Of a stretch of 64,000 bases of DNA, positions 9,902 through 62,406 are shown one piece after another (position 1 is the stretch's first letter; the number at the start of each line of letters is the position of its first letter). The stretch lies in assembly GCA_038213805.1 (NCBI GenBank), contig JBBQSO010000023.1, positions 1 through 64,000 of the forward strand, written 5' to 3'. The notes under the pieces were generated by a model. It ran no database searches. It was given only the letters and a program-made list of their open reading frames with translations, and was not told where the DNA came from. Origin of the DNA: Planctomycetota bacterium (GTDB lineage: Bacteria; Planctomycetota; UBA11346). Position numbers and translations under genes: made by a program.

Positions 9902-10185
9902 CGCCAGCCGCCGAGCAGGACCACCGCCCACACCATCAGCCGCGCGCAAAGCAGGAACAGCGCCAGGCTGGCCGCGGCCATCGCCAGGCCGGCCACGATC
10001 CGCCGCCACGGCCCGGCCTGCCCGGCCACGGCGTGGGTCTTGGCCAGGCACGGCCGGCAGTAATTGATGCCGTCGCGCGTGGTCGCGCATTCTTGGCAGA
10101 CCACCAGCCGGCAGGACATGCACAGCGCGAAACCAGCACGTTCGGGATGATGGGCGCAGATCCGCGCACCTTGGGCCAGCGCCAT
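9898..10185 (-). CDS. Small B-box-like zinc finger membrane protein (95 aa)
   Basis: CAHH..CMSC..CQEC..CRPC followed by a hydrophobic C-terminus. GAGG upstream of the ATG. Confidence 0.75.
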   Translation of the reverse strand: MALAQGARICAHHPERAGFALCMSCRLVVCQECATTRDGINYCRPCLAKTHAVAGQAGPWRRIVAGLAMAAASLALFLLCARLMVWAVVLLGGWR

Positions 10186-10372
10186 GGAACCTACCTCTCG
10201 AACGGTTCTTGTCGCGGCGGGGCCCCAAAAGCAAGGGCGGGCGACGCTGAGCGGGTGGACAGCTGCGGCATGACCGACACCACCTGAAGGTGGCCTGTTT
10301 CCCCCCTGGCGGGTGACGGCCGCGCTGCCCATGCTGATGCGAGCGGTCCGGGGCACCCGGCCGCAGCACCCC

Positions 10373-12415
10373 ATGGCCAAACCTTCTACCACCTCTGTGG
10401 CGCGACCGCTGGCGGACCAGGGTGATGCGACCGCCAAGCGCGCACCTGCGGGCAGGCGCGCAACCGCGCCGGTCATAACCACGCTGTCGCTCTGCCACCT
10501 CGCATTTCTGGTGCTGGTCGCGGCCTATCTCTGTACTTTTCACCGCCAGGGTGAGCAGGCGGTGTGGCTGATGGCGGCCGTTGGCGTGATCGGCGAATTG
10601 CTGCCGGGCGCGCTCCGCCGCTGGTTCCTGGCCGAGATCTTGCTCGTGCTGGGCTCGGCGGTCTGCTGGCTGTGGGTCATGCCGCACGGCGTGCCGGATG
10701 CCCTGCACGCCACCCTGGGCATGGCGCTCGCTGACTGGATGCTGGTGCCAAGCCGCCTGGGCATGCTGCGCTGGGTGCTGAGCCTGGCGATTGTCGAGCT
10801 GGTGGTGCAGGGCGCGCGTCCGCACGCCAGCCTCGCCGCGCTCTCCATCATCCCGATCGGACTGGGCGCCCTGGCCGTCGACAGCTGGCTGCTTGGCGCG
10901 CTCACCGCGAAGCGCGGCCTGCGCTTGGCCACGCCGCCGGGGCTGTCGCTGCTACGCTGGGCGCTGATCCCGGCGGCGCTGGCGATGATCGTCGGGATCG
11001 GTGGCGGCGGCGCGGTGGTGCGCCGCAGCATCGCCTACAACGCCGCGCACGATCAGGGGCATGGGCCGCATCCGGGGACCAAGGATCGCAGCATCGCCGG
11101 GCTCGGCGACAGCCTGCACATCGGTGATAGCCAGCGCGTCGATCTCGACCCGCGCGTCGCCGCCCATCTGTTCTGGGAGACCGGAGCGGACCCGAGCGGC
11201 CTGGTGTACCTGCGCGCCCTGGCGCTGTCTGAGCTGACCCTCAACGGCAGCATGCTGTCGTGGCGCGCTGCACACCGCGCCGCCCTGGTGCCGGCGCCGC
11301 CGCCCGCGCATCATCCCGTGCGCTGGGGTAGCATCTGGCGCCTGCCCGGTGGCGGCGACGTCATCCTGCGCCCGGACGGCGGCGAAGCGCTGCAGGACCT
11401 CGCGGACGTGGTCCGCGACGCGGACGGCAACCTTTACAGCCCCGGACTGGGCAATGCCTCGCGTATCTACAAAGCCGACTTCGACGAGGGCCAGATCGAC
11501 GCCGATCCTGCCGAGCTGGCCGAGTACCGCGCCTTCCCCCAGGAGCTCGCAAGCCTGCCCTGGGCCGAGCTCGAGGAGCCGCGCTGGCGCACCATGACGC
11601 CAGAGCGCGCCGCCGACGCGGTGCGCAAGGCGCTGCAGGAGCGCTGCCACTATAGCCTCGTCGATCTGCCATCGCCGGCAGCCGGCGCGGGCGGGGTGAT
11701 CCGCACCTTCCTGTTCGGGCGCGAGCAGGAGCGCATCGGCCACTGCCAGTACTTCGCGACCTCGGCGGTACTGCTGCTGCGCCACGCGGGTCACGTCGCG
11801 CGCTGCGTGGTCGGCTTCGCCTCGGACGAGCTCGACGAGCGCGGCGTGGTCTTCCGCGGCCTGCACGCGCACGCCTGGGTCGAAGTCGTCGACAGCCACG
11901 GCCAGTGGCTGCGCTGCGATCCGACCCCGCCGGCCGGTATGCACCAGCGCGGCCCTCTGGGCATGGGCAATGAGGGCCACGACGACGAGCAGCCGCCGCC
12001 ACCCGTGCAGGTGCCGGTGGCCGACGTCCACACGCCCCAGGCCGCCGCAGAGCGCCAACGCACGCAGATCGTCAGCGCGGCCATGATATGCGCCGGCCTC
12101 GCGCTCGCGTGGTGGCTGCTGCGCCGCCGCCGTGCTATCGATCCGCGCCTCGCCCTGCTCCAGCGCCACACCGAGAACCTCTTCCGCGTGGCGGTGGCGC
12201 TGGGAGTGCCGGTCGGCCCCGCCACCACCCTCACCGAGGTCGCGCACGCGCTGACCGCGTGCACCGGCGTCGTGCTCGACGCGTACCTCGCCGCCCATCT
12301 CGCCGCGCGCTTCGGCGGCGGCCCCCTGCCCCCTCCCTGGCCGATCGACGAGCTGCGCGTCGCCGGGCGGCGCGGGGCGCCTGTCAGCGCGGGGGCAGCT
12401 GGATCTCGGGGGTGA
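10373..12415 (+). CDS. Membrane-bound transglutaminase-like protein (TgpA/DUF3488 type)
   Basis: N-terminal TM bundle. Catalytic triad motifs GHCQYFAT, HAWVEV and DPTP. Start uncertain (10313 or 10373). Confidence 0.9.
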   Translation: MAKPSTTSVARPLADQGDATAKRAPAGRRATAPVITTLSLCHLAFLVLVAAYLCTFHRQGEQAVWLMAAVGVIGELLPGALRRWFLAEILLVLGSAVCWLWVMPHGVPDALHATLGMALADWMLVPSRLGMLRWVLSLAIVELVVQGARPHASLAALSIIPIGLGALAVDSWLLGALTAKRGLRLATPPGLSLLRWALIPAALAMIVGIGGGGAVVRRSIAYNAAHDQGHGPHPGTKDRSIAGLGDSLHIGDSQRVDLDPRVAAHLFWETGADPSGLVYLRALALSELTLNGSMLSWRAAHRAALVPAPPPAHHPVRWGSIWRLPGGGDVILRPDGGEALQDLADVVRDADGNLYSPGLGNASRIYKADFDEGQIDADPAELAEYRAFPQELASLPWAELEEPRWRTMTPERAADAVRKALQERCHYSLVDLPSPAAGAGGVIRTFLFGREQERIGHCQYFATSAVLLLRHAGHVARCVVGFASDELDERGVVFRGLHAHAWVEVVDSHGQWLRCDPTPPAGMHQRGPLGMGNEGHDDEQPPPPVQVPVADVHTPQAAAERQRTQIVSAAMICAGLALAWWLLRRRRAIDPRLALLQRHTENLFRVAVALGVPVGPATTLTEVAHALTACTGVVLDAYLAAHLAARFGGGPLPPPWPIDELRVAGRRGAPVSAGAAGSRG

Positions 12416-12854
12416 TCAGGTCGGGTGGCAGCACCTCGGACGGGTGCGGGCTGACCACGAGTTCGGAGACCACGCGATTGTTGTCGCCCGCCTTAAGCGC
12501 GACCACGCGCACGAAGGCGACGCCGCGCGCGCACGTGATGATGAAGTAGGCGACCTCGGCGCGTGCGCCGAAGCGCCGCACACCGAGTTCGGTCACGCCG
12601 GTAGGCCGACCCAGAAGTTCGAACTGGGCGGCGAACAGCGCGGCATAGCCCGGCACCTGACCCTCGAGCGCGCCGTCGGCGAGGAGGATGCGCGTGCCCC
12701 GCTCCAGCGGCCCGTCCTTGACCCCGGGCGTGGGCGGCTCCTGCATCACCGTCACGGCATCGTGCAGGCGTCGCTCGATGAAGCTGTCGGCCGCGTTGAG
12801 CGGGGCGATGCCGAGGGCGGCGAAGGCAATCAGGGCGGTGAGTTGGCTGGGCAT
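12384..12854 (-). CDS. Hypothetical secreted protein
   Basis: Signal-peptide-like MPSQLTALIAFAALGIAPLNAA, with AGGA upstream. Confidence 0.6.
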   Translation of the reverse strand: MPSQLTALIAFAALGIAPLNAADSFIERRLHDAVTVMQEPPTPGVKDGPLERGTRILLADGALEGQVPGYAALFAAQFELLGRPTGVTELGVRRFGARAEVAYFIITCARGVAFVRVVALKAGDNNRVVSELVVSPHPSEVLPPDLITPEIQLPPR

Positions 12855-12904
12855 GGTTGGTCCTGGCTCAGGGGAGGGAGCGGTGCGGAGCGCGGGTGCA
12901 GCGG

Positions 12905-12925
12905 GATGCGAGATGCGAGATGCGA
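12905..12925. repeat. (GATGCGA)x3 heptamer array, single arm
   Basis: Three exact copies with degenerate copies upstream, in an intergenic region. Confidence 0.7.
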
Positions 12926-13047
12926 GGGGACGGGTTCCGGGTGCGTCAGGTCGCCACGATGATCGCCGTTCCACCGCAGCCTCGATCCACCTGGTCGGTG
13001 GCGGCGGACGATCGTCCCGGAACCGTATCCGGGCGCGACCACGGTCC

Positions 13048-15926
<2,879 letters not shown>

Positions 15927-16101
15927 GCACTTTGACCGTTGCGCATTCCGGGCGCCTTGGGGCCACGGGTACGTCGCTGATCCCCAGGCTTCGGCGTGGT
16001 CGCAGCGACCCTGGGACAGACTGGCCGGTGACCACCGTCCGCGCCGCATGATCTGCGTCACACCGCTTCCCCCCAGGGCCAGGTCGCCGTAGCATCCCGC
16101 C

Positions 16102-20459: not shown

Positions 20460-21125
20460 GTGACCGCGCTGCTCGGCTACGATCTCATCCCACCCTCGGT
20501 GCCCACGGGTCTGCCCTGGTACTGCCTGATCCTGCATGGTCTGGGCGACAGCCGCCATGGCTGGCAGCCGGTCGCGCCGATGCTGAGCCTGCCCCAGCTC
20601 GGCTTCATCTTCGCCGAGGCCCCCAAGGCGTACCACGACGGCTTCAGCTGGTTCGACATCAGCCCGGAATTCGCGCCCGACCCGGACCAGGTGCGCAGCA
20701 GCCGGGCGGCGCTGGTGCGGCTCATCGACCACCTGCTCGACGAGCTCGACCTGCCCAGCGAGCGCCTGTTCATCCTCGGCTTCAGCCAGGGCTGCCTGAT
20801 GACTCTCGACGTCGGCCTGCGCAGCTCCCAGCGCTTCGCCGGCCTGATCGGGATCAGCGGCTTCATGTGCCTGCTCGACGAGTTCCCGGCCGCCTTCACC
20901 CCGGCCACCCGGACGCAGCACCTGCTGCTGACGCACGGGCGCAGCGATCAGCTCATCCCCATCGCCCATACCCGCGCACAGAAGGACCGCCTGGTCGCCC
21001 TGGGCGTGGCGCTGACTTGGCGCGAATACGCCAAGGCCCACCATCTCGACATGCCGCAGGAGCTCGACGACATCCGCGCCTGGCTGCTCGCGCGCATCGC
21101 CACCGGTGCCCGACTTGGCGCTTGA
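20460..21125 (+). CDS. Phospholipase/carboxylesterase (alpha/beta hydrolase)
   Basis: LHGLGDS, nucleophile elbow GFSQG, HGRSD and a C-terminal His. Confidence 0.9.
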   Translation: MTALLGYDLIPPSVPTGLPWYCLILHGLGDSRHGWQPVAPMLSLPQLGFIFAEAPKAYHDGFSWFDISPEFAPDPDQVRSSRAALVRLIDHLLDELDLPSERLFILGFSQGCLMTLDVGLRSSQRFAGLIGISGFMCLLDEFPAAFTPATRTQHLLLTHGRSDQLIPIAHTRAQKDRLVALGVALTWREYAKAHHLDMPQELDDIRAWLLARIATGARLGA

Positions 21126-37899: not shown

Positions 37900-38394
37900 T
37901 CAGTCGTCAGAATAGGTGTAGACCCCAGATTGGCCAACGGTTTCGGACACTTCCACCCGCAGGCGGCGGACGCTCACGGCACCGAAGGTCTCCTTAAGCC
38001 GGGCATACAGGCTGCGGCCGATCCAGGCGGAGAAGTTTTCGGCCGAGGTGTTGTTGATGGGCAGAACGATGACCTCGGCGGTCGGGGCAAGGTAGCGGCA
38101 TTCGCGGTAGGCGACCTCGGTGTGGCCATCGTCGCGGTGGATGTAGCGCAGTTCGCGGTGCTCGCCGGGAATCAGCCAGTGCTCATCGAGGTGATCGCAC
38201 AGCTCTTTGATGATCGGCTTGACCATCTTGAAATCGATCACCAGGCCGAACTCCGACAGGCTGCCATCGACCTCGCACACCACATGGTAATTGTGGCCGT
38301 GCAGACGCTCCTTGGAGCCATTCGGGAAGATCAGGAAATGTGCACAGGAGAACTTCAGGTACTCCTTGGCGATGTGGATGGACCATTGTTCCAT
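37900..38394 (-). CDS. queD: 6-pyruvoyl/6-carboxy-tetrahydropterin synthase family protein
   Basis: FSCAHF, LHGHNY, IDF, DE, TSAEN and VSET. Confidence 0.88.
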   Translation of the reverse strand: MEQWSIHIAKEYLKFSCAHFLIFPNGSKERLHGHNYHVVCEVDGSLSEFGLVIDFKMVKPIIKELCDHLDEHWLIPGEHRELRYIHRDDGHTEVAYRECRYLAPTAEVIVLPINNTSAENFSAWIGRSLYARLKETFGAVSVRRLRVEVSETVGQSGVYTYSDD

Positions 38395-38404
38395 GGGGGA
38401 CCTG

Positions 38405-38696
38405 TGGCTGATGGCTGATGGCTGATGGCTGATGGCTGATGGCTGATGGCTGATGCCGGCGACACGCGCCGGCATTAGGATGGGGCTGGTGGCAGCGCTG
38501 ATCGCGCCAGCCAACCCAGGACCCGATCCATCAGCCTTCAATCCGGAACGGCCCGCGGTCCGCCCGTGCCCATGATGGCCCCCCATCAATCCTCAACAAG
38601 GCCAACCACCGGTCGCCTCAGGCGAGTGCCATGGGACGGCTCACCACGTCACCCCCCCCACCTCTGCCCTCGACCCAGCAGCCATCAGCCATCAGC
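38405..38696. repeat. Inverted heptamer-array element: (TGGCTGA)x7 ... (TCAGCCA)x2-3
   Basis: Seven exact copies at 38405-38453. Reverse-complement arm CAGCCATCAGCCATCAGC at 38679-38696. Confidence 0.85.
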
Positions 38697-38754
38697 AAGG
38701 GCCCAGCCCTACGCTCCTTGCCCACCCCGCCGCCCCCGCGAACATGCCCCCCGC

Positions 38755-39432
38755 ATGTCCGAGACCGTCAAAGCCCTCTTCGCCAACATCGCACCCCGCT
38801 ACGACCTGCTCAACCGGGTGCTGTCGGCGCGGAGCGATGTGCGCTGGCGCCGCCGCGCCCTGGACCTGGTCGAGGGCCGCCCGGAGTCGGTGCTCGACCT
38901 CGCCTGCGGCACCTTCGACCTCGGCCTGGAAGCGCTCGCCCGCGGCAAGGCGATGCGCGTCCACGGCTGCGACTTCTGTCAGCCGATGCTGGTTGCCGGA
39001 GCGGGTAAGCGCCGTGGCCACCCCCTCTCCGCGAGTGTCGGCGACGCCCTGCACCTGCCATTCGCCGATCAGGCATTCGACCTCGCCATGATCGCCTATG
39101 GCTGGCGCAACTTCAGCGATCCGACCCTGGCTCTGCGTGAGCTGCGCCGGGTGCTGCGCCCCGGTGGCCAACTGCTCATCCTGGAATTCTTCCGGCCGCT
39201 CGGCTGGTGGCCGAAACTGTTCTACGGCACTTTCGGACGCTTCATCTTCCCTGCCGCCGGCGGCGCCCTGGCCGGCAATCCCGGCGCCTACCGCTACCTC
39301 AACGACAGCATCGGGCGCTTCCTGTCCCAGGGCGAGGCCGATGCGCTGCTGCTGCGCGAAGGGTTCGCCCAGACGCGCTGGACGAGCTTCTTCGGCGGGG
39401 TCAGCCATGGGGTCGTCGCGCGCCTGGTTTGA
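38755..39432 (+). CDS. ubiE: UbiE/MenG family quinone C-methyltransferase
   Basis: FANIAPRYDLLN, VLDLACGT, GDALHLPF, RVLRPGG.LLILEF and AYRYL. Confidence 0.88.
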   Translation: MSETVKALFANIAPRYDLLNRVLSARSDVRWRRRALDLVEGRPESVLDLACGTFDLGLEALARGKAMRVHGCDFCQPMLVAGAGKRRGHPLSASVGDALHLPFADQAFDLAMIAYGWRNFSDPTLALRELRRVLRPGGQLLILEFFRPLGWWPKLFYGTFGRFIFPAAGGALAGNPGAYRYLNDSIGRFLSQGEADALLLREGFAQTRWTSFFGGVSHGVVARLV

Positions 39433-39453
39433 CCGCGAGATGGGGTTTGGGAT

Positions 39454-39600
39454 GAGGTGCGGAGCGGGGAGCGGGGAGTGACCGGCAAATTCGGCTGACA
39501 CTCCGTTGACCGGATTCTCGCCCCTTTTCCCTCGCATCACCCCATCCTCCTTGGCACTCCGCACTCCGCACCTCGCACGCCCCACTCTGCACTCCCCGCC
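39454..39600. repeat. Inverted heptamer-array element (GGAGCGG/GGAGTGC type)
   Basis: GAGGTGCGGAGCGGGGAGCGGGGAGTG at the left and GCACTCCGCACTCCGCACCTCGCAC...GCACTCCCCGC at the right. Confidence 0.7.
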
Positions 39601-39641
39601 CGCTTGATCCAAGGTCACGCTGGCCGATCCCAGCCCGCCTC

Positions 39642-41444
39642 CTACGGTCTGACCGCATGCTCATCCTGCTGCTGCGCATCGGCTTCGTGACCCTGGCCAC
39701 GCTCATCGGCTTGACCAGCGGACAGCACTTCTACCACGCCACCCTGGACGGTGTCCTGCCACCGTGGTTCGGGGGAGCGATGGGCTTCGGCGTCTCGATC
39801 ACCCTGATCGCGGGCGAGCACGCATTTCGCCGGCATTTCTCGCGCGGTCTGGTTGGTTTCCTGATCGGTCTGGGTGCCGGCCTGCTGCTGGCGTACCTGC
39901 TGCTCAGCGTGCTGCATCTGGTCATCCAGGATGACACGCTCTACAACAACATCGACCTGCCGGTGGCGCTGCTCACCGTCTACCTGGTGCTGATCACGGT
40001 GCTGCGCAACATCGACCGTCTGCGCGTGGTCATCCCCTTCGTCGAACTGCGCGCGGAACGCAGCGACGAGAGCGGGCTGGTGCTCGACGCCTGGGTGCTT
40101 GCTGATGGGCGGCTGACCGCGCTGATCGCCGCGGGGCTGCTGCCGCGCCGCCTGCTCGTCCACCGCCGTGTCCTGCTCTTTCTCGAAGACCAGGCCAGCG
40201 GCCCTGATGTCGCCCTCCAGACCCGCGCCCGGCGGGCGCTCGAAGCCCTTGCCACCCTGCGCGCGATGCCGCAGGTGCGCGTGGAGATCGACGAGACCGA
40301 GATCCCCAACGCCTCGAGCCTCGCCGACGTGGTCATCCGCCTCGCCCGGCTGGAGAGCGCACGGCTGATCGCCAGCGAGCGCGACATCCTCCAGCGGGCG
40401 GCCGCCGAAGGCCTGGTCGCGATCGACCTCCAGAGCCTGGGCAGCGCGCTGTCGCCGGTGGTGCGTCCGGGCGAGGTCCTGACCGTGGCCATCGACAAGG
40501 CCGGCGAGGGCCGCAACCAGGGCGTGGGCTACCTCGACGATGGCAGCATGGTGATCGTCGCCGACGCCGCCCACCTGGTTGGGGCACGCGTGCGCTGCAC
40601 CATCCTGCGCCTGCACCAGACCGCCAACGGGCGGATGGTGTTCGCGGAGCCCATCGGCGCCGGGGACGGCGCCGGTCCGGAAGTCCGGAAGTCCGGAAGT
40701 ACGGAACAACCAGGGGGAGCACCCCGCGAAAGCCTCAGGCGTCGCCTGGGGGCATGGCGCGGGAGGAACTGGGCCGTCGACTTCCGGACTTCCGGACTTC
40801 CGGACCTCCGGACCCTGGCCGACTTGGCCGGCCAGCCCGGCCAACCCGTCCCACCCCGGCATCGCCGCCAGTTCGCGCTCCAGGACCGCGGTGAGCCGAG
40901 GATCATCGAGCACCAGCGAGGTCTCGCGGTTTGCGACCAGTGCAGAGCGCGTCCAGTTGTGGCTGCCGACCACCGCCCAGCGCGAATCGACCAGCACCAC
41001 CTTGGCGTGGCTGGTGCGCGTCAGTTCATCGAGCAGCACCGGCACCCCGTGCTCCCGCAGCCAGGCGGTGGGCGCCTCGTGCTTGTGCTCGGGCTCCTTG
41101 GTGTCGTAGGTCAGACCCCGGTCGAGGGCCACCCGCACGTCGACACCGCGACGCCGGGCGGCGGCGAGGGCCTCCATCAGGCCCATGACCGGACTGCCGG
41201 GATCGGCGCGGATGACGAACATCAGCACCCACACGCGCGCCTGCGCCCCGGCGACGAGGCGCTCGACGGCGCGCGCATACTCGGCTTCGTGCCCCGGCCC
41301 GCTCAACAGCAGGACAGGCGGGGCAGAGCGGGCGCGGCCGCACCAGCCGACCACGCCGATGGCCAGGACCAGGGCAGTGATGACCGCGGCGCTGCGCTGC
41401 CACGCGGGGCGCGGGTGCAGGTCGACCTGGAGCGGCAGCGCCAT
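39642..41444 (-). CDS. Phospholipase D/Nuc-like single-HKD protein; homologous part is about 41444-40845 and the ORF reads through to 39642
   Basis: N-terminal TM, RRGVDVRV, SHAKVVLVD, GSHNWT and NRETSL. No in-frame stop until 39642. Confidence 0.8.
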   Translation of the reverse strand: MALPLQVDLHPRPAWQRSAAVITALVLAIGVVGWCGRARSAPPVLLLSGPGHEAEYARAVERLVAGAQARVWVLMFVIRADPGSPVMGLMEALAAARRRGVDVRVALDRGLTYDTKEPEHKHEAPTAWLREHGVPVLLDELTRTSHAKVVLVDSRWAVVGSHNWTRSALVANRETSLVLDDPRLTAVLERELAAMPGWDGLAGLAGQVGQGPEVRKSGSPEVDGPVPPAPCPQATPEAFAGCSPWLFRTSGLPDFRTGAVPGADGLREHHPPVGGLVQAQDGAAHACPNQVGGVGDDHHAAIVEVAHALVAALAGLVDGHGQDLARTHHRRQRAAQALEVDRDQAFGGRPLEDVALAGDQPCALQPGEADDHVGEARGVGDLGLVDLHAHLRHRAQGGKGFERPPGAGLEGDIRAAGLVFEKEQDTAVDEQAARQQPRGDQRGQPPISKHPGVEHQPALVAAFRAQFDEGDDHAQTVDVAQHRDQHQVDGEQRHRQVDVVVERVILDDQMQHAEQQVRQQQAGTQTDQETNQTAREMPAKCVLARDQGDRDAEAHRSPEPRWQDTVQGGVVEVLSAGQADERGQGHEADAQQQDEHAVRP

Positions 41445-41510
41445 GGGCTGCCCGCTCAGCTCTCGGCGTCCGCCTCGACCGCGGCCACGGCATCGGGCAG
41501 GCGCTCGTAG
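39657..41510 (+). CDS. PIN/TRAM (YacL-like) membrane protein; homologous part ends near 40655 and the ORF reads through to 41510
   Basis: Four TM segments, VLD..VLADGRL, PGEVL, QGVGYLDDGSMVIV and QTANGRMVFA. No in-frame stop until 41508-41510. Confidence 0.85.
   Translation: MLILLLRIGFVTLATLIGLTSGQHFYHATLDGVLPPWFGGAMGFGVSITLIAGEHAFRRHFSRGLVGFLIGLGAGLLLAYLLLSVLHLVIQDDTLYNNIDLPVALLTVYLVLITVLRNIDRLRVVIPFVELRAERSDESGLVLDAWVLADGRLTALIAAGLLPRRLLVHRRVLLFLEDQASGPDVALQTRARRALEALATLRAMPQVRVEIDETEIPNASSLADVVIRLARLESARLIASERDILQRAAAEGLVAIDLQSLGSALSPVVRPGEVLTVAIDKAGEGRNQGVGYLDDGSMVIVADAAHLVGARVRCTILRLHQTANGRMVFAEPIGAGDGAGPEVRKSGSTEQPGGAPRESLRRRLGAWRGRNWAVDFRTSGLPDLRTLADLAGQPGQPVPPRHRRQFALQDRGEPRIIEHQRGLAVCDQCRARPVVAADHRPARIDQHHLGVAGARQFIEQHRHPVLPQPGGGRLVLVLGLLGVVGQTPVEGHPHVDTATPGGGEGLHQAHDRTAGIGADDEHQHPHARLRPGDEALDGARILGFVPRPAQQQDRRGRAGAAAPADHADGQDQGSDDRGAALPRGARVQVDLERQRHGLPAQLSASASTAATASGRRS
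40674..40814. repeat. Inverted octamer-array element (CCGGAAGT)x3 ... (ACTTCCGG)x3 + ACCTCCGG
   Basis: Arms at 40677-40700 and 40780-40811 with inverted outer ends GGT/ACC. Same unit as the 60719-60910 element. Confidence 0.9.
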
Positions 41511-41809
41511 ACGGGCAGGATCTTGGTCAATCGGGTCATGCGCAGCACGGTTGCGACGCTCGGTGCGGGCTCGGCGATGACCATACGCCCGCCAGAGATG
41601 CGCACCCGGTTGACCACGCCGATGAGCAGGGCGATGACCTCGGAGCCGAGCGCGGGGATGGCGCTCGCGTCGATCACCCAGCGCCCGGCGGGATTGGCGG
41701 TCACGCGCGTGCTCAGCTCATCGACGACGCGGTCGATGAAGGCGGGCTCGCCGACCGACACCGACCAACGCATCACCCGCACCTTGCCAACCATGGTCTC
41801 AGTCCACAT
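41456..41809 (-). CDS. STAS domain anti-sigma factor antagonist
   Basis: VIDAS....GS..I..L and V..VLRMTRLTKILPVYE...DAV. Confidence 0.8.
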   Translation of the reverse strand: MWTETMVGKVRVMRWSVSVGEPAFIDRVVDELSTRVTANPAGRWVIDASAIPALGSEVIALLIGVVNRVRISGGRMVIAEPAPSVATVLRMTRLTKILPVYERLPDAVAAVEADAES

Positions 41810-41841
41810 GTCACGCACTTTCGGCTGGAATGCGGCCCAGG

Positions 41842-42891
41842 TCAAGGATGGGTTGGGAGCGACGGCCGGTCGGCCAGGGCGTCGGCGGCGCGCGCGAACA
41901 CCGCCTCGATGCTGATCGCGCCCATGTCGACCTTGGTCACGTCGCGCCGCTCCCAGGCCGCGCCCGGCGCCTGCAACGTGCGGTAGCCGCGGCCCCGCGG
42001 GCCGTTGCGCGTGGCCGGCACCGGGCCGAACAGCCCTATCGCCGGCGTACCGACCGCCTGGCAGAGATGCAGCGGACCGGTGTCGCCGCTCACCACCAGC
42101 GCCGCGCCGGCGAGCAGGGCAGCAAGTTGGGGAATGGTGGTGGGCGGCGCCACCACGCCGCTGCCGGCTTCACCAGCGATCTCCTCAGCGAGGTCGTGCT
42201 CGGCCGGCGATCCCCATACCAGGACCAGCGGCTGGCGACGGCGACCCAGGGCGCGCGCGAACTCGATCTGGCGCTTCACCGGCCACACCTTGGTCGGCCA
42301 GCCGGCACCGACATTCAGCATCCACGGCTGGCCGGGGCCGTGCGCTGGCAGGCCCTGCTTCTCAAACCAACGCGCCACCCACTCGCGCTCGGCCGTCCAC
42401 GCCGGCAGCGGGAAGCGCCACGGCGCGTCCGGACGGCCGCCGCCAAGCAGGGGCAGGCCCAGGGCGCGCTGCTGATCGATGACGTGTTCGGCGAAGGCTG
42501 GGGTGCGCCGACGCGACAGCAGCCAACTGAGTTCGCGGGCGCGTGGCCGGCGGTGGCCGATGCGCCGGGCTGCGCCCGCGCAGCGCGACAGCAGTGCGCT
42601 CTTGGCCAGGCCCTGGGCATCGATCACCGCGTCGTAGCCGCAGGCCCGCACCTCGCGCAGCAGGCGCCGCAGCAGCAGGGCGCGCCGACCGAGGGTGCAG
42701 CCCGGCTCGCGCATGGAACGCCGCGGCAACTCATGGAGGCGGGCGATGGCCGGGCTGCCGCGCAACAGCGGCGCCCAGCGGTCCTCACATAGCCAGCCCA
42801 GCTCATGGCCGGCCGCCGCCAGATCCGCAGCCAGCGGAAGAGTGTGGACGATATCGCCGAAGGCCCCCAGGCGCACGATCAGAACCCGCAT
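41842..42891 (-). CDS. Glycosyltransferase family 9 (heptosyltransferase-like)
   Basis: VRLGAFGDIVHTLP, IDAQGLAKS, KVWP, VSGDTGPLH and GLFGP. Confidence 0.92.
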   Translation of the reverse strand: MRVLIVRLGAFGDIVHTLPLAADLAAAGHELGWLCEDRWAPLLRGSPAIARLHELPRRSMREPGCTLGRRALLLRRLLREVRACGYDAVIDAQGLAKSALLSRCAGAARRIGHRRPRARELSWLLSRRRTPAFAEHVIDQQRALGLPLLGGGRPDAPWRFPLPAWTAEREWVARWFEKQGLPAHGPGQPWMLNVGAGWPTKVWPVKRQIEFARALGRRRQPLVLVWGSPAEHDLAEEIAGEAGSGVVAPPTTIPQLAALLAGAALVVSGDTGPLHLCQAVGTPAIGLFGPVPATRNGPRGRGYRTLQAPGAAWERRDVTKVDMGAISIEAVFARAADALADRPSLPTHP

Positions 42892-43199
42892 CCGCGGCAC
42901 GTTAGCGGGGCGCCAGAGAATGGCGACGGTCGCCTCCCGCAGGGTCACCACCGGACCTCGCCTGGAATCCGCTCTGAATCCCGGAGGAGAAGCAAAGGAC
43001 CTCCCTGCCAACCCCCTAGCTCCCCATGTCCCTCCGGTTTTCCATGACCATTCCCTGCCACTTTCCGCTGCCTGGCGCCGGTCTGGCCACAGTCCGATAC
43101 CCGGAAGAGGTTTGCGCCCTTGCGACATGAACCGGGGGGCTGTAGAAGGGTCGACCACCTCGACTCCAATAGGACGGGACCTTCCCGGTCGCGAAACGC

Positions 43200-48387: not shown

Positions 48388-48521
48388 GGCTGACGGCTGA
48401 CGGCTGACGACGGCGCTTCGCGCCGTCTCATGAACCCGAAAGCAGGGGCCGGCCGCGATCGATTTGCAATCCCCGGACCAGTAGCTGCCAGCTGCCAGCC
48501 GTCAGCCGTCAGCCGTCAGCC
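48388..48521. repeat. Inverted heptamer-array element (GGCTGAC)x3 ... (GTCAGCC)x3
   Basis: Arms at 48388-48408 and 48501-48521, with an internal hairpin GACGGCG-CTTCG-CGCCGTC. Confidence 0.85.
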
Positions 48522-50224: not shown

Positions 50225-50244
50225 CCCGTCCTGGGACCTCCCTG

Positions 50245-50495
50245 CAGCCGGACAGCCGGACAGCCGGATAAAACAGGAGACGCGGAGGCGCGGAGAACGG
50301 AGGAGGACGACTGAGAGCTCGGACCGCCCCGCCATCCGCGTTCCTGACCGTCTGACCAGGCCGCTCCCGGAATCGCGGCGTCCACGCGCATCGCGGAAGC
50401 GCTCCAGGCAGTCCCCCCTCCCCTCCTCCGATCTCCGCGTCTCCGCGACTCCTGTTCGATCCGGCTGTCGCATCCTCGCGTTGGATCCGGCTGTC
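50245..50495. repeat. Composite inverted element with (CAGCCGGA)n outer arms and CGCGGAG-type inner arms
   Basis: Left: (CAGCCGGA)x3 + AACAGGAGACGCGGAGGCGCGGAGAACGGAGGAGG. Right: CCTCCTCCGATCTCCGCGTCTCCGCGACTCCTGTT + ATCCGGCTGTC x2. Confidence 0.85.
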
Positions 50496-50521
50496 GGACT
50501 CCCCCTCGATCGGACCACTCT

Positions 50522-51314: not shown

Positions 51315-51374
51315 TGTGCGGAATGCGGCGTGCGCAGTGCGCTGATTCACACGACGCATTCCGCACTTCGCACA
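51315..51374. repeat. Short inverted heptamer-array hairpin between convergent genes (possible terminator)
   Basis: TGTGCGGAATGCGGCGTGCGCAGTGCG ... CGCATTCCGCACTTCGCACA. Confidence 0.7.
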
Positions 51375-51380
51375 TGTGCG

Positions 51381-57191: not shown

Positions 57192-57356
57192 GTGCGGAGT
57201 GGGGAGTGGGGAGTGCGAAGTGCGAAGTGCGAAGTGCGGAGTGCGTACTGGTCCCTTGGCCTCGCTCGGAGACCGACGAGGCGCCGTTGCCCAGTTGAGA
57301 TCAATGATGACGCAGGATTCCCCGCGCACCGCACGCCGCACACCGCACCCCGCACC
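57192..57356. repeat. Inverted heptamer-array element (GTGCGRA/GTGGGGA)x7 ... (CGCACNC)n
   Basis: Left arm at 57192-57245 and a degenerate complementary arm at 57325-57356, in a divergent intergenic region. Confidence 0.8.
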
Positions 57357-60392: not shown

Positions 60393-60716
60393 GTGCCCGA
60401 TACTGTCACCATCACCGCTCCCAAAACCGTCACCCGCAGCGAGGTCGCGCCCGACCGCGGCTGGAAGGCGGTGCTGTTCAACGACGAGGTCACGCCCCTC
60501 AATGTGGTGATCTTCGGCCTGCAACGCTCCGCCGGCCTGAGCGAGGAAATCGCCGAAGCCGTCGCATTGGAGGCCCACCAGCACGAGCAGGCGGTGGTGA
60601 AGCGCGGCCTGAGCGAGGAGGACGCCAAGATCCTCTGCGGCGGTCTGCGCAAATGGACGCGTATCGATGGCATCTGTCCAGGCGTGACGTGCGAGGCGCA
60701 GCAGGATGACGAATAG
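60393..60716 (+). CDS. clpS: ATP-dependent Clp protease adaptor
   Basis: AVLFNDEVTP..VV and A.EAH...AVV. 107 aa. Confidence 0.8.
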   Translation: MPDTVTITAPKTVTRSEVAPDRGWKAVLFNDEVTPLNVVIFGLQRSAGLSEEIAEAVALEAHQHEQAVVKRGLSEEDAKILCGGLRKWTRIDGICPGVTCEAQQDDE

Positions 60717-62406
60717 GCGTCCGGAGGTCCGGAAGTCCGGAAGTCCGGAAATCGGGGACCTGTCACTGCGGCCGGTGGCGGCGGGCCGCAAGCGTCCATC
60801 CGCGCCCCAGGTCGCAGCCGAGCAGACTGCCAACCCGCCGCCCACCGGAGCCGCTGCGCGCAGCGCGCCGCCGCGGACTTCCGGACTTCCGGACTTCCGG
60901 ACCTCCGGACCCGCCCTCCGCATCCGCGCATGCAACCGCAGCCCGGTGCGCAGCGACGGCACCTTCGTGCTCTACTGGATGATCGCCAATCGGCGCACCA
61001 GCTGGAACCACAGCCTCGACCGCGCGGTCGGTTGGGCGCGCGAACTGGGCCGACCGCTGCTCATCCTCGAGGCGCTGCGCTGCGGCTACCCGTGGGCGAG
61101 CGCGCGGCTGCACCGCTTCGTGCTGCAGGGCATGGCCGACAACGCCGTGGCCTGCGCGCGCGCCGGAGTCGCCTACCATGCCTACGTCGAGGACCGGCCG
61201 GGCGCCGGCACTGGTCTGCTCGAGAGCCTGGGGCGCGAGGCCTGCGTGGTCGTCACCGATGAGTTTCCCTGCTTCTTCCTGCCGCGCATGGTCGCGGCGG
61301 CGGCCAGCCGCATGCCGGTACTGCTCGAGGCGGTCGATGGGAATGGCGTGCTGCCGCTCGCCGCGGCCGACCACGCCTTCCCGACGGCGTACGCATTCCG
61401 CCGTTTCCTGCAAAAGACCTTGCCGGCGCACCTCGGCGCCGCGCCGCGCGCCAAGCCCTTCGCTGGCGCGCCGTTGCCGCGCCTGGCCACCCCGCCCGCG
61501 GCGTTCACGCGCTGGCCCGCGGCCGCTGCGGCGTTGCTCGCCGGGGACGCGACCGCGCTCGCCGCGCTGCCCATCGACCACGGCGTGGCGCCAGTCGCGT
61601 TGACCGGCGGGGCGGTCGCGGCAGAGCGCCAGCTCGAGGGCTTCCTCGACCAGCGCCTCGCACGCTACGGCGAGGAGCGCAGCCTGGTGGCGAATGACTG
61701 TGCGAGCGGCCTGTCCCCCTGGCTGCATTTCGGCCACATCTCGGCGCACGCGGTGCTGGCACGCGTGCTGGCGCGCGAGGACTGGTCACCCGAGCGACTC
61801 GGCCAGCGCTGCGACGGCAAGAAGGAGGGCTGGTGGGGGCTGAGTGCGAGCGCGGAGTCCTTCCTCGACGAACTGGTCACGTGGCGCGAGCTCGGCTACG
61901 TGTTCTGTCAGCGCACGCCTGATCACGACTGCTACGAGTCGCTGCCGCCGTGGGCGCGCGCGACCCTCGACCAGCATACCGCCGACGCGCGCCAGCACCG
62001 CTACTCCCTGGACGACTTCTCCGCCGGACGCACCCACGATCCGCTGTGGAACGCCGCGCAGGGTCAGTTGCGCACCACCGGGCGCATGCACAACTACCTG
62101 CGCATGTTGTGGGGGAAGAAGATCCTGGAATGGACCGCGCACCCGCGCGAGGCGCTGGCGGTGATGATCGACCTCAACAACCGCTATGCCCTCGACGGGC
62201 GCGATCCCAACAGCTACAGCGGGATCTTCTGGTGCCTGGGGCGCTTCGACCGGCCGTGGGCGCCGCAGCGGCCGATCTTTGGACAGATCCGCTACATGAG
62301 CTCCGCCAATACCGCGCGCAAGATGCGCGTCACCGAGTACATCGCCACCTATGCCCCCGCTGCGCCCGGGACCCCTGATGGTCAGCAGCGCCTGTTCAAC
62401 CCATGA
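60706..62406 (+). CDS. phr: Class II CPD deoxyribodipyrimidine photolyase with an in-frame repeat insert at the N-terminus
   Basis: VLYWM, SGLSPWLHFGHIS, ELVTWREL, THDPLWNAAQ, MHNYLRMLWGKKILEW, DGRDPNSY and FGQIRYM. Confidence 0.92.
   Translation: MTNRRPEVRKSGSPEIGDLSLRPVAAGRKRPSAPQVAAEQTANPPPTGAAARSAPPRTSGLPDFRTSGPALRIRACNRSPVRSDGTFVLYWMIANRRTSWNHSLDRAVGWARELGRPLLILEALRCGYPWASARLHRFVLQGMADNAVACARAGVAYHAYVEDRPGAGTGLLESLGREACVVVTDEFPCFFLPRMVAAAASRMPVLLEAVDGNGVLPLAAADHAFPTAYAFRRFLQKTLPAHLGAAPRAKPFAGAPLPRLATPPAAFTRWPAAAAALLAGDATALAALPIDHGVAPVALTGGAVAAERQLEGFLDQRLARYGEERSLVANDCASGLSPWLHFGHISAHAVLARVLAREDWSPERLGQRCDGKKEGWWGLSASAESFLDELVTWRELGYVFCQRTPDHDCYESLPPWARATLDQHTADARQHRYSLDDFSAGRTHDPLWNAAQGQLRTTGRMHNYLRMLWGKKILEWTAHPREALAVMIDLNNRYALDGRDPNSYSGIFWCLGRFDRPWAPQRPIFGQIRYMSSANTARKMRVTEYIATYAPAAPGTPDGQQRLFNP
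60719..60910. repeat. 192 bp inverted octamer-array element (CCGGAAGT)n ... (ACTTCCGG)n
   Basis: Arms at 60719-60752 and 60877-60910 with inverted ends GTCCGGAGG / CCTCCGGAC. Confidence 0.9.

Follow-up and report, generated by a model that had tools for sequence, protein, structure and literature searches.

The two convergent genes at positions 39,642 to 41,510 of a 64,000-nt stretch of Planctomycetota bacterium DNA (contig JBBQSO010000023.1, positions 1 to 64,000; hereafter the window) have, as assembled, no stop codon close to the end of their conserved parts. Instead, each reads in frame through a palindromic repeat element that lies between them and then through the whole of the partner gene. 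One gene encodes a PIN-TRAM protein and the other a protein with a PLD domain. The explanation that we favor, with a probability of roughly 0.55, is that a rapidly remodelled foldback element replaced the spacer between the genes together with both stop codons; the read-through would then be ordinary and the resulting protein tails junk, with neither an adaptive overlap nor a genetic switch involved.

The PIN-TRAM open reading frame (ORF) runs on the plus strand over 39657..41510 and is 617 amino acids (aa) long, and the PLD ORF occupies 39642..41444 of the minus strand and is 600 aa long; the two overlap over 1,788 nt (39657-41444). These recomputed values agree with the lengths and the overlap of about 1.79 kb given in an earlier reading of this DNA (the first-pass annotation), and the exact codon-aligned antisense register that it described between the two genes was also found. 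From 40560 to 40891 all three plus-strand frames are open, and the first stops beyond are TGA at 40892 and TAG at 41107, both as previously listed, and TAG at 41508, of which only the last is in the PIN-TRAM frame. The minus strand differs from the earlier description, in which the element was free of stops and the nearest stops were those at 40529 and 40333. It was found that the core of the element carries a minus-strand TGA (40735-40737), so that the nearest stops are actually at 40737 and 40531, in frames that PLD does not use, and the predicted outcomes of repeat slippage change with them. The further minus-strand stops are at 40529-40531 and 40333-40335, and PLD itself meets its first in-frame stop at 39642-39644. 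The stretch at the element that is free of stops in all six frames measures 157 nt (40735-40892), and 15 longer ones exist in the window.

The window has a G+C content of about 69% and contains gene families typical of Planctomycetota (PSD1, PSCyt, and DUF1501/1552). A protein search with the PIN-TRAM ORF returned 189 proteins at E ≤ 1e-3, with 44-92% identity and about 92% of the query covered; the lengths among the matches listed were mostly 330-350 aa, several of these matches carry the Joint Genome Institute name 'uncharacterized protein YacL', and many have a precomputed PF01938 assignment. The Pfam TRAM model scored 16.4 bits on the window's own protein, under its 21-bit cut-off, and Pfam and NCBIfam profile scans gave no match to a PIN model, so that 'PIN' is used here as the label of the first-pass annotation and the name of the family rather than as a profile match. 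In an alignment with 10 relatives, each relative stops 5-35 residues past an invariant ...MVFA(E/D), whereas the window ORF continues for 286 residues. Judged by these similarities, the first 332 residues of the plus-strand ORF are a YacL-like membrane PIN-TRAM protein.

The PLD ORF matched the Pfam PLDc_2 model with 76.2 bits (cut-off 27) and is 92.7% identical to its counterpart in the closest relative, and the scores of the NCBIfam equivalogs DrmC, ClsB, and NucT on it were all under their cut-offs. Its stretch SHAKVVLVDSRWAVVGSHNWT fits the HxK...D...GSxN motif. By homology, the first 200 or so residues of the minus-strand ORF are a PLD-superfamily domain. The PLD start (41444) lies 11 nt past the stop of a same-strand STAS-domain gene (41456-41845), with which PLD is probably co-transcribed; the next gene upstream on this strand encodes a family 9 heptosyltransferase.

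The loss of the stops is seen by comparison with relatives, for which one scan of species-representative genomes yielded 13 loci, all of them in Planctomycetota metagenome bins. The PLD protein is encoded at 8 of these, as the convergent neighbor of PIN-TRAM at 7 and 3.4 kb away at the remaining one (L011). The first-pass annotation had named the orthologous junction in relatives as a check, and at this junction both genes stop normally in all 7 relatives that have the adjacent convergent PLD gene. The PIN-TRAM proteins there are 332-340 aa long (six full-length copies; that of L012 is cut at its start), the PLD proteins are 199-220 aa, and the spacer from stop to stop is 14-546 nt.

The closest relative (L001; 92% amino acid identity and about 89% DNA identity) is collinear with the window from 29.6 to 50.9 kb, and the breaks in homology between the two fall exactly at spacers. 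At the PIN-TRAM/PLD junction, DNA homology stops at about 40652 and restarts at 40846 (...MPGWDGLA on the minus strand), close to the ends near 40655 and 40845 that had been proposed. In L001 the PIN-TRAM gene stops 9 codons past ...FAE and the PLD gene 13 codons past ...PGW. Between the last conserved codons the window has 193 bp and L001 has 319 bp, with only chance short words in common. Because the stops are normal in the 7 relatives and the L001 spacer DNA is unrelated, the stops and the short native tails were evidently lost in the lineage of the window when the spacer was replaced. The suggestion in the first-pass annotation that the element had simply replaced both stop codons is thus borne out. 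The 255-nt spacer of L001 carries a hairpin repeat of another kind, (AATCTGCG)n, with a second copy at L001 398-460. The two L001 copies, at 398-460 and 11088-11170, make up a hairpin family in which the arms are (ATCTGCGNA)n and the TTCTC...GAGAG loop is shared, and one of them is the copy in the PIN-TRAM/PLD spacer. The pattern (TCCGGAAG)2 was found at none of the 13 fetched loci. From the repeats compared, the unit families that are amplified seem to differ from genome to genome.

The element between the window genes is, as first described, a 141-bp inverted repeat (40674-40814), and consists of an inverted pair of octamer arrays. The arms at 40674-40700 and 40780-40806 are complementary at all 27 nt, and at 88% of positions when stretched to 40 nt. 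The arrays are (GTCCGGAA)x4.0 at 40675-40706 and (GACTTCCG)x4.4 at 40779-40813, and they enclose a core of 72-79 nt; the unit GTCCGGAA does not contain a run of three G. The 16-mer TCCGGAAGTCCGGAAG, with at most 2 mismatches, occurred 12 times compared to 0.04 expected, and none of 100 shuffles reached 12. Folding of 221 nt gave -137 kcal/mol for the plus-strand RNA and -145 kcal/mol for the minus-strand RNA, with a stem of about 30 bp and z-scores of -5.6 and -6.4, respectively, and none of 200 shuffles was as stable. The small hairpin stretch to the left of the element (40656..40673) has no counterpart in L001.

Rfam gave no match at gathering thresholds in the whole window. In a permissive scan of 40550-40950, three microRNA-precursor models scored 19-29 bits compared to gathering thresholds of 90-98, and they were set aside as chance hairpin likeness. 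A retron, an integron attC site, and a CRISPR array were also rejected, as a domain scan of 61 window ORFs revealed no reverse transcriptase, integrase, or Cas protein and the anatomy does not fit; an alternative genetic code was considered and likewise rejected as not fitting the anatomy.

The element is one of eight inverted-array elements in the window, all intergenic, with units of 7 or 8 nt in 2.6-7.6 copies (Table 1). In the fold of each of the eight, a long stem closes the spacer, with z below -3 in six. Of the 11 perfect arrays that the window contains, 7 are matched by an exact inverted counterpart no more than 450 nt away. The genes on either side are in divergent, co-directional, or convergent orientation, and in some cases a start or stop codon is no more than about 10 nt from an arm. 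The right arm of the focal element is identical to that of the copy at 60719-60911 at 37 of 37 nt, whereas the cores (40707-40778 and 60751-60873) share nothing longer than 7-mers. At this second copy the ClpS stop (TAG, 60714-60716) is retained 2 nt before the arm. The longest ORF of the adjacent photolyase-like gene (60706-62406) has an ATG that overlaps the end of ClpS and reads across the element, which is a hazard for annotation; the true start is probably just past the element, at about 60946.

Table 1. Coordinates of the focal genes, of the repeat element between them, and of related elements in the window
Feature	Position	Strand	Basis
PIN-TRAM conserved part (aa 1-332), ends ...GRMVFAEP	39657..40652	+	protein search, alignment
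PIN-TRAM read-through tail: 285 codons and TAG 41508-41510; element, then antisense to the whole PLD gene	40653..41510	+	
PLD conserved part (about aa 1-200), ends ...LERELAAMPGWDGLA	40846..41444	-	PLDc_2 match, L001 alignment
PLD read-through tail: about 400 codons and stop 39642-39644; element, then antisense to the whole PIN-TRAM gene	39642..40845	-	
Small GC-rich hairpin, 7-bp stem; unique left flank between gene end and left arm	40656..40673		minimum free energy structure
Left arm: (GTCCGGAA)x3 and a degenerate unit	40674..40706		
Core (loop), 72 nt; holds the sole stop in the element, on the - strand	40707..40778		
Right arm: (GACTTCCG)x3, then GACCTCCG, GACC	40779..40814		
Small GC-rich hairpin, 8-bp stem; unique right flank	40823..40843		folding
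Element, TGGCTGA unit	38405-38698		
Element, GGAGCGG / GCACTCC units	39455-39595		
Element, GGCTGAC unit	48388-48521		
Element, two nested pairs	50245-50496		
Element, GTGCGGA unit, between convergent stops	51316-51375		
Element, GGAGTGC unit	57192-57356		
Second copy of the focal arms with an unrelated core of about 120 nt, between ClpS and a photolyase-like gene	60719-60911		z -9.6

Three comparisons with L001 show how such elements change between close relatives. A 298-bp nested foldback element at 50225-50521, between the stop of a poly(A) polymerase/CCA-type gene and a TruA-like start, is represented in L001 by 6-7 bp (20640-20646); GGACC is found near both of its ends with intervening extra bases, and no target-site duplication is evident at the focal copy. 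Conversely, L001 has (GGGTCCA)x21 facing (AGACCCT)x7 at 13422-13697, upstream of a response-regulator gene, whereas the corresponding window spacer (42927-43081) has no array. Between the orthologous elements at 48388-48521 and at L001 18860-18945, the unit has changed in both arms in a complementary way (GGCTGAC/GTCAGCC in the window and GGCTGGC/GCCAGCC in L001), and unit number and a 33-nt indel in the core also distinguish them. Given this complementary change, the arms evolve in concert, which, as far as can be judged from this pair, suggests either that pairing is under selection or that arms are copied from each other. Inverted arrays are also present in the more distant relatives L006 and L008. 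Units that contain GTCC recur, as GTCCGGAA, GTCCGGG, GTCCGAT, GTCCGAG, and GTCCAGG (L004 7210-7229, L006 5806-5979, L008 6606-7070, window 40675, L001 13553), and this recurrence might reflect a common origin or some sequence-specific component, for example, a binding protein. No transposase, recombinase, or invertase domain was found among the 61 scanned ORFs of the window.

The favored explanation would account for these observations as follows. The spacer between two conserved convergent genes holds one member of a lineage-specific foldback repeat family, each member of which comprises two inverted arrays of 7-8-nt units that close a variable core into a long hairpin. Gain, loss, and remodelling of such elements are fast among close relatives. 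Remodelling at this locus would have swapped out everything between the last conserved codons, both stops and the short native tails included. By chance the new segment is free of stops in the two frames in use, and both ORFs therefore continue. Since the codon-aligned antisense frame is nearly free of stops at a G+C content of third codon positions (GC3) of about 85-90%, and the register is by chance the aligned one, each ORF then reads through the whole of its partner.

The contribution of codon bias was evaluated over the 13,757 codons of 30 GC3-rich window genes, in which the aligned antisense frame had 0.45 stops per 100 codons compared to 1.89 and 3.0 in the other two frames, and was free of stops in 9 of the 30 genes. 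A stop in the aligned frame requires the sense codon TTA, CTA, or TCA, which are rare at such GC3. At the observed rate, about 1.5 stops would be expected in 332 codons and about 0.9 in 199 codons. The aligned register is also present in 4 of the 7 relatives, and the probability of at least 4 of 7 under a chance of 1 in 3 is 0.17. In L001, the corresponding antisense ORFs 9986..10960 (minus strand) and 11168..12049 (plus strand) are open despite the intact stops of the genes, and the read-through tails in the window have no Pfam or NCBIfam family match. Therefore, the mutual overlap of 1.79 kb results from stop loss together with codon bias; it is a by-product of GC3 and not evidence for overlapping coding. 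The mutual whole-gene read-through to which the first-pass annotation drew attention is thus real as far as the assembled ORFs are concerned, but does not look like a designed overlap.

As to the transcripts, the proposal in the first-pass annotation that the hairpin terminates or processes both of them is plausible: the GC-rich stem of about 30 bp most likely acts as an end for both or as a cleavage site in both, RNase III being one candidate enzyme. Ribosomes would run off the resulting non-stop mRNAs and would be rescued by trans-translation; otherwise, both proteins would carry long, unstructured junk tails. A locus in this stop-less state would be neutral to mildly harmful to the cell, and the state is probably short-lived.

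Several points weigh against this explanation. A single assembly underlies the junction, and the window's own ORFs were not among the matches in the protein collections. The loss of two stops in one event is unusual, and the other seven elements leave the adjacent starts and stops intact. The gene pair is conserved in the clade, and a state that harms both genes should be selected against. The scanned ORFs supply no transposase or recombinase, as noted above, and the insertion at 50225-50521 shows no clear target-site duplication. A consensus scan of 38000-43000 found no sigma-70-like promoter and no canonical intrinsic terminator, compared to 0.3 promoters and 1.5 terminators expected from shuffles. 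Finally, the transcript ends, RNase III cleavage, and tagging by transfer-messenger RNA (tmRNA) are purely inferred, and a search of the window with ARAGORN gave neither a tRNA nor a tmRNA gene.

The most serious competing explanation, although an unlikely one, is that the junction is an artefact, in which a collapse, mis-join, or mis-polish at a palindromic tandem-repeat stretch that is also found 20 kb away has hidden a true genome with normal stops. Palindromes of 141 bp are badly handled by assemblers and polishers, the arms recur within the window, and searches of protein collections found no independent copy of the junction; moreover, the lineage looks uncultured and known only from metagenome bins, and all 13 related loci are on contigs of metagenome-assembled genomes. 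However, synteny with L001 is unbroken on both sides, and long intact genes are present elsewhere in the window. Homology is lost in unique sequence, at distances of 21 and 31 nt from the outer sides of the arms, and a mis-join at the repeated arms would therefore not remove stops located outside them. Nor would a small indel yield a PIN-TRAM protein of native length, because 40560-40891 is free of plus-strand stops in all frames; the first stop that such an indel could bring into use would end the protein at 409 aa.

Far less probable is a contingency switch, in which gain or loss of a single 8-nt unit through slippage, or an inversion of the core between the perfect arms, would toggle the C-termini or the stop status of one or both genes and so set coupled, heritable protein levels. 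The part of this proposal in the first-pass annotation that stands is its formal possibility: 8 is not a multiple of 3, the units lie inside both ORFs as assembled, and the number of units varies between orthologous elements of the window and L001. Loss of a right-arm unit would place a PLD stop within the core (233 aa), with a PIN-TRAM protein of 409, 478, or 617 aa depending on the state of the left arm, and inversion of the core (40701-40779) would bring a TGA into the PIN-TRAM frame to give 362 aa, which is in the range of the homologs, with PLD staying at 600 aa. No support was found for the coupling. Over the nine simulated arm states (-1, 0, or +1 unit per arm), PIN-TRAM ranged from 409 to 617 aa and PLD from 233 to 600 aa, and neither any of these states nor the inversion gave native-like ends to both proteins. 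An in-frame TGA upon inversion is expected by accident in 1 of 3 cases, and arrays of 3-4 units are short for slippage at a high rate. There is also no evidence of heterogeneity in unit number and no invertase or recombinase gene among the scanned ORFs, and the relatives manage without such a device.

We consider still more doubtful a wider proposal, which would make the foldback arrays an undescribed class of concertedly evolving Planctomycetota elements that act as bidirectional signals for transcript ends or processing independently of a U-tract; in the present case, protein ends would be fixed by the hairpin instead of by stop codons, with slippage or inversion setting a coupled, heritable choice between a stop and a tmRNA-tagged product.

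That the extensions of 285 and about 400 aa are working protein parts, in a functional antisense overlap, is hardly credible: the 1.79 kb is open in both frames and translated long antisense ORFs are reported for another high-GC bacterium in the passages of PMC8850804 that concern them, but the openness is already predicted by codon bias and recurs in L001 unjoined to genes, the tails match no protein family, the stops are normal in all 7 relatives, and a search of proteins of 330-1050 aa gave no relative of the long form. In that size range, the PLD search gave only two unrelated larger PLD proteins, with 37-38% identity over about 21% of the query, and the 66 residues encoded by the element had no match at E ≤ 0.01 among 221 candidate proteins of 339-1080 aa.

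Apart from the elements, the region 12000-16000 of the window has a G+C content of 0.63-0.65, compared to about 0.69 elsewhere, and contains GC3-rich ORFs without a Pfam match; this region may be foreign or fast-evolving DNA.

Repeats that affect gene ends are known from other bacteria. The palindromic elements of Rickettsia are found in frame within protein-coding genes and can be read as protein without adding a stop; in contrast to these elements, which lie inside genes with intact ends, the element described here is at gene ends and the stops are gone. In terms of a miniature inverted-repeat transposable element (MITE), terminal inverted repeats are present, as arms common to two copies, but a shared internal sequence is not. 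Heptamer tandem repeats of cyanobacteria are known under the name STRR. The TAACTGA repeats of Beggiatoaceae are described, in the relevant passages of PMC4679880, as abundant intergenic 7-nt direct repeats, often near start codons and patchy across lineages, with 1 inverted set among 170. Unlike these nearly always direct repeats, at least as that source portrays them, the arrays in the window form inverted pairs that close the whole spacer.

The closest likeness is to the (GGGAATC)n arrays of Xanthomonas, for which PMC4692102, in the sections dealing with them, gives 70-75 cases of two convergent opposite-strand arrays with the potential to form stem-loops or cruciforms; array length varies between related genomes, whereas the type (single or inverted pair) is usually kept. 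Like those arrays, the elements in the window have short units, are mostly intergenic, occur in a high-GC genome, and include opposite-strand pairs able to form stem-loops. As far as those sections describe the Xanthomonas arrays, the elements in the window differ in using several units (GTCCGGAA, TGGCTGA, GGCTGAC, GTGCGGA, CAGCCGGA, and others) of 8 nt as well as 7 nt, in the lack of a G-tract in the focal unit, for which no G-quadruplex is expected, in their Planctomycetota host, and in the removal of two stops.

An effect on gene ends has been described for the palindromic elements QMITE1 and QMITE2 of Coxiella burnetii, which, in the account given in part of PMC5896051, extend into functional genes at their 3' ends, so that the last residues of the protein or its stop codon come from the element. 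The enhC gene of one strain reads on through a QMITE, and the authors propose cutting of the stem by RNase III, a non-stop mRNA, and protein degradation (PMC5896051). QMITEs, as characterized there, have a shared internal sequence, direct repeats, a link to insertion sequences, and a stop just after the element, whereas the two copies in the window have unrelated cores, and the focal one affects a convergent gene pair at once, with no stop just after it. REP/BIME (REPIN) sequences, as outlined in PMC3733652, have a palindromic unit of 20-40 nt with a GTAG or CGTC end tag and a RAYT transposase; relative to that outline, the focal element has tandem-octamer arms, no GTAG, CGTC at 1 of 4 inner arm ends, and no such transposase in the window. 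Long open antisense (shadow) ORFs are attributed to high GC in parts of PMC8850804 and PMC3454372, and unlike the plain shadow ORFs treated there, those at the focal junction continue real genes in the same frame, since these genes lack their stops. A literature search of limited depth found no description of such elements in Planctomycetota, which is weak evidence that none is in print. Taken together, both the type of element and its effect on gene ends are of known kinds; what is new is that two stops were lost at once.

Should the junction prove real, two conserved genes would have lost their stops together to a hairpin repeat that evolves fast, and the locus would be a natural test case for how bacteria handle non-stop or tail-extended proteins of a housekeeping type. 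It is also a warning for the annotation of high-GC genomes, in that one lost stop is enough to produce a 600-aa 'protein' that is mostly antisense junk and hides the real partner gene from gene callers. The repeat family itself may be the more useful lead, with arrays that bracket spacers, arms that co-vary, and presence or absence at about 89% DNA identity, and it could be used to study the origin and role of such hairpins in a phylum in which terminators and regulatory signals are poorly known.

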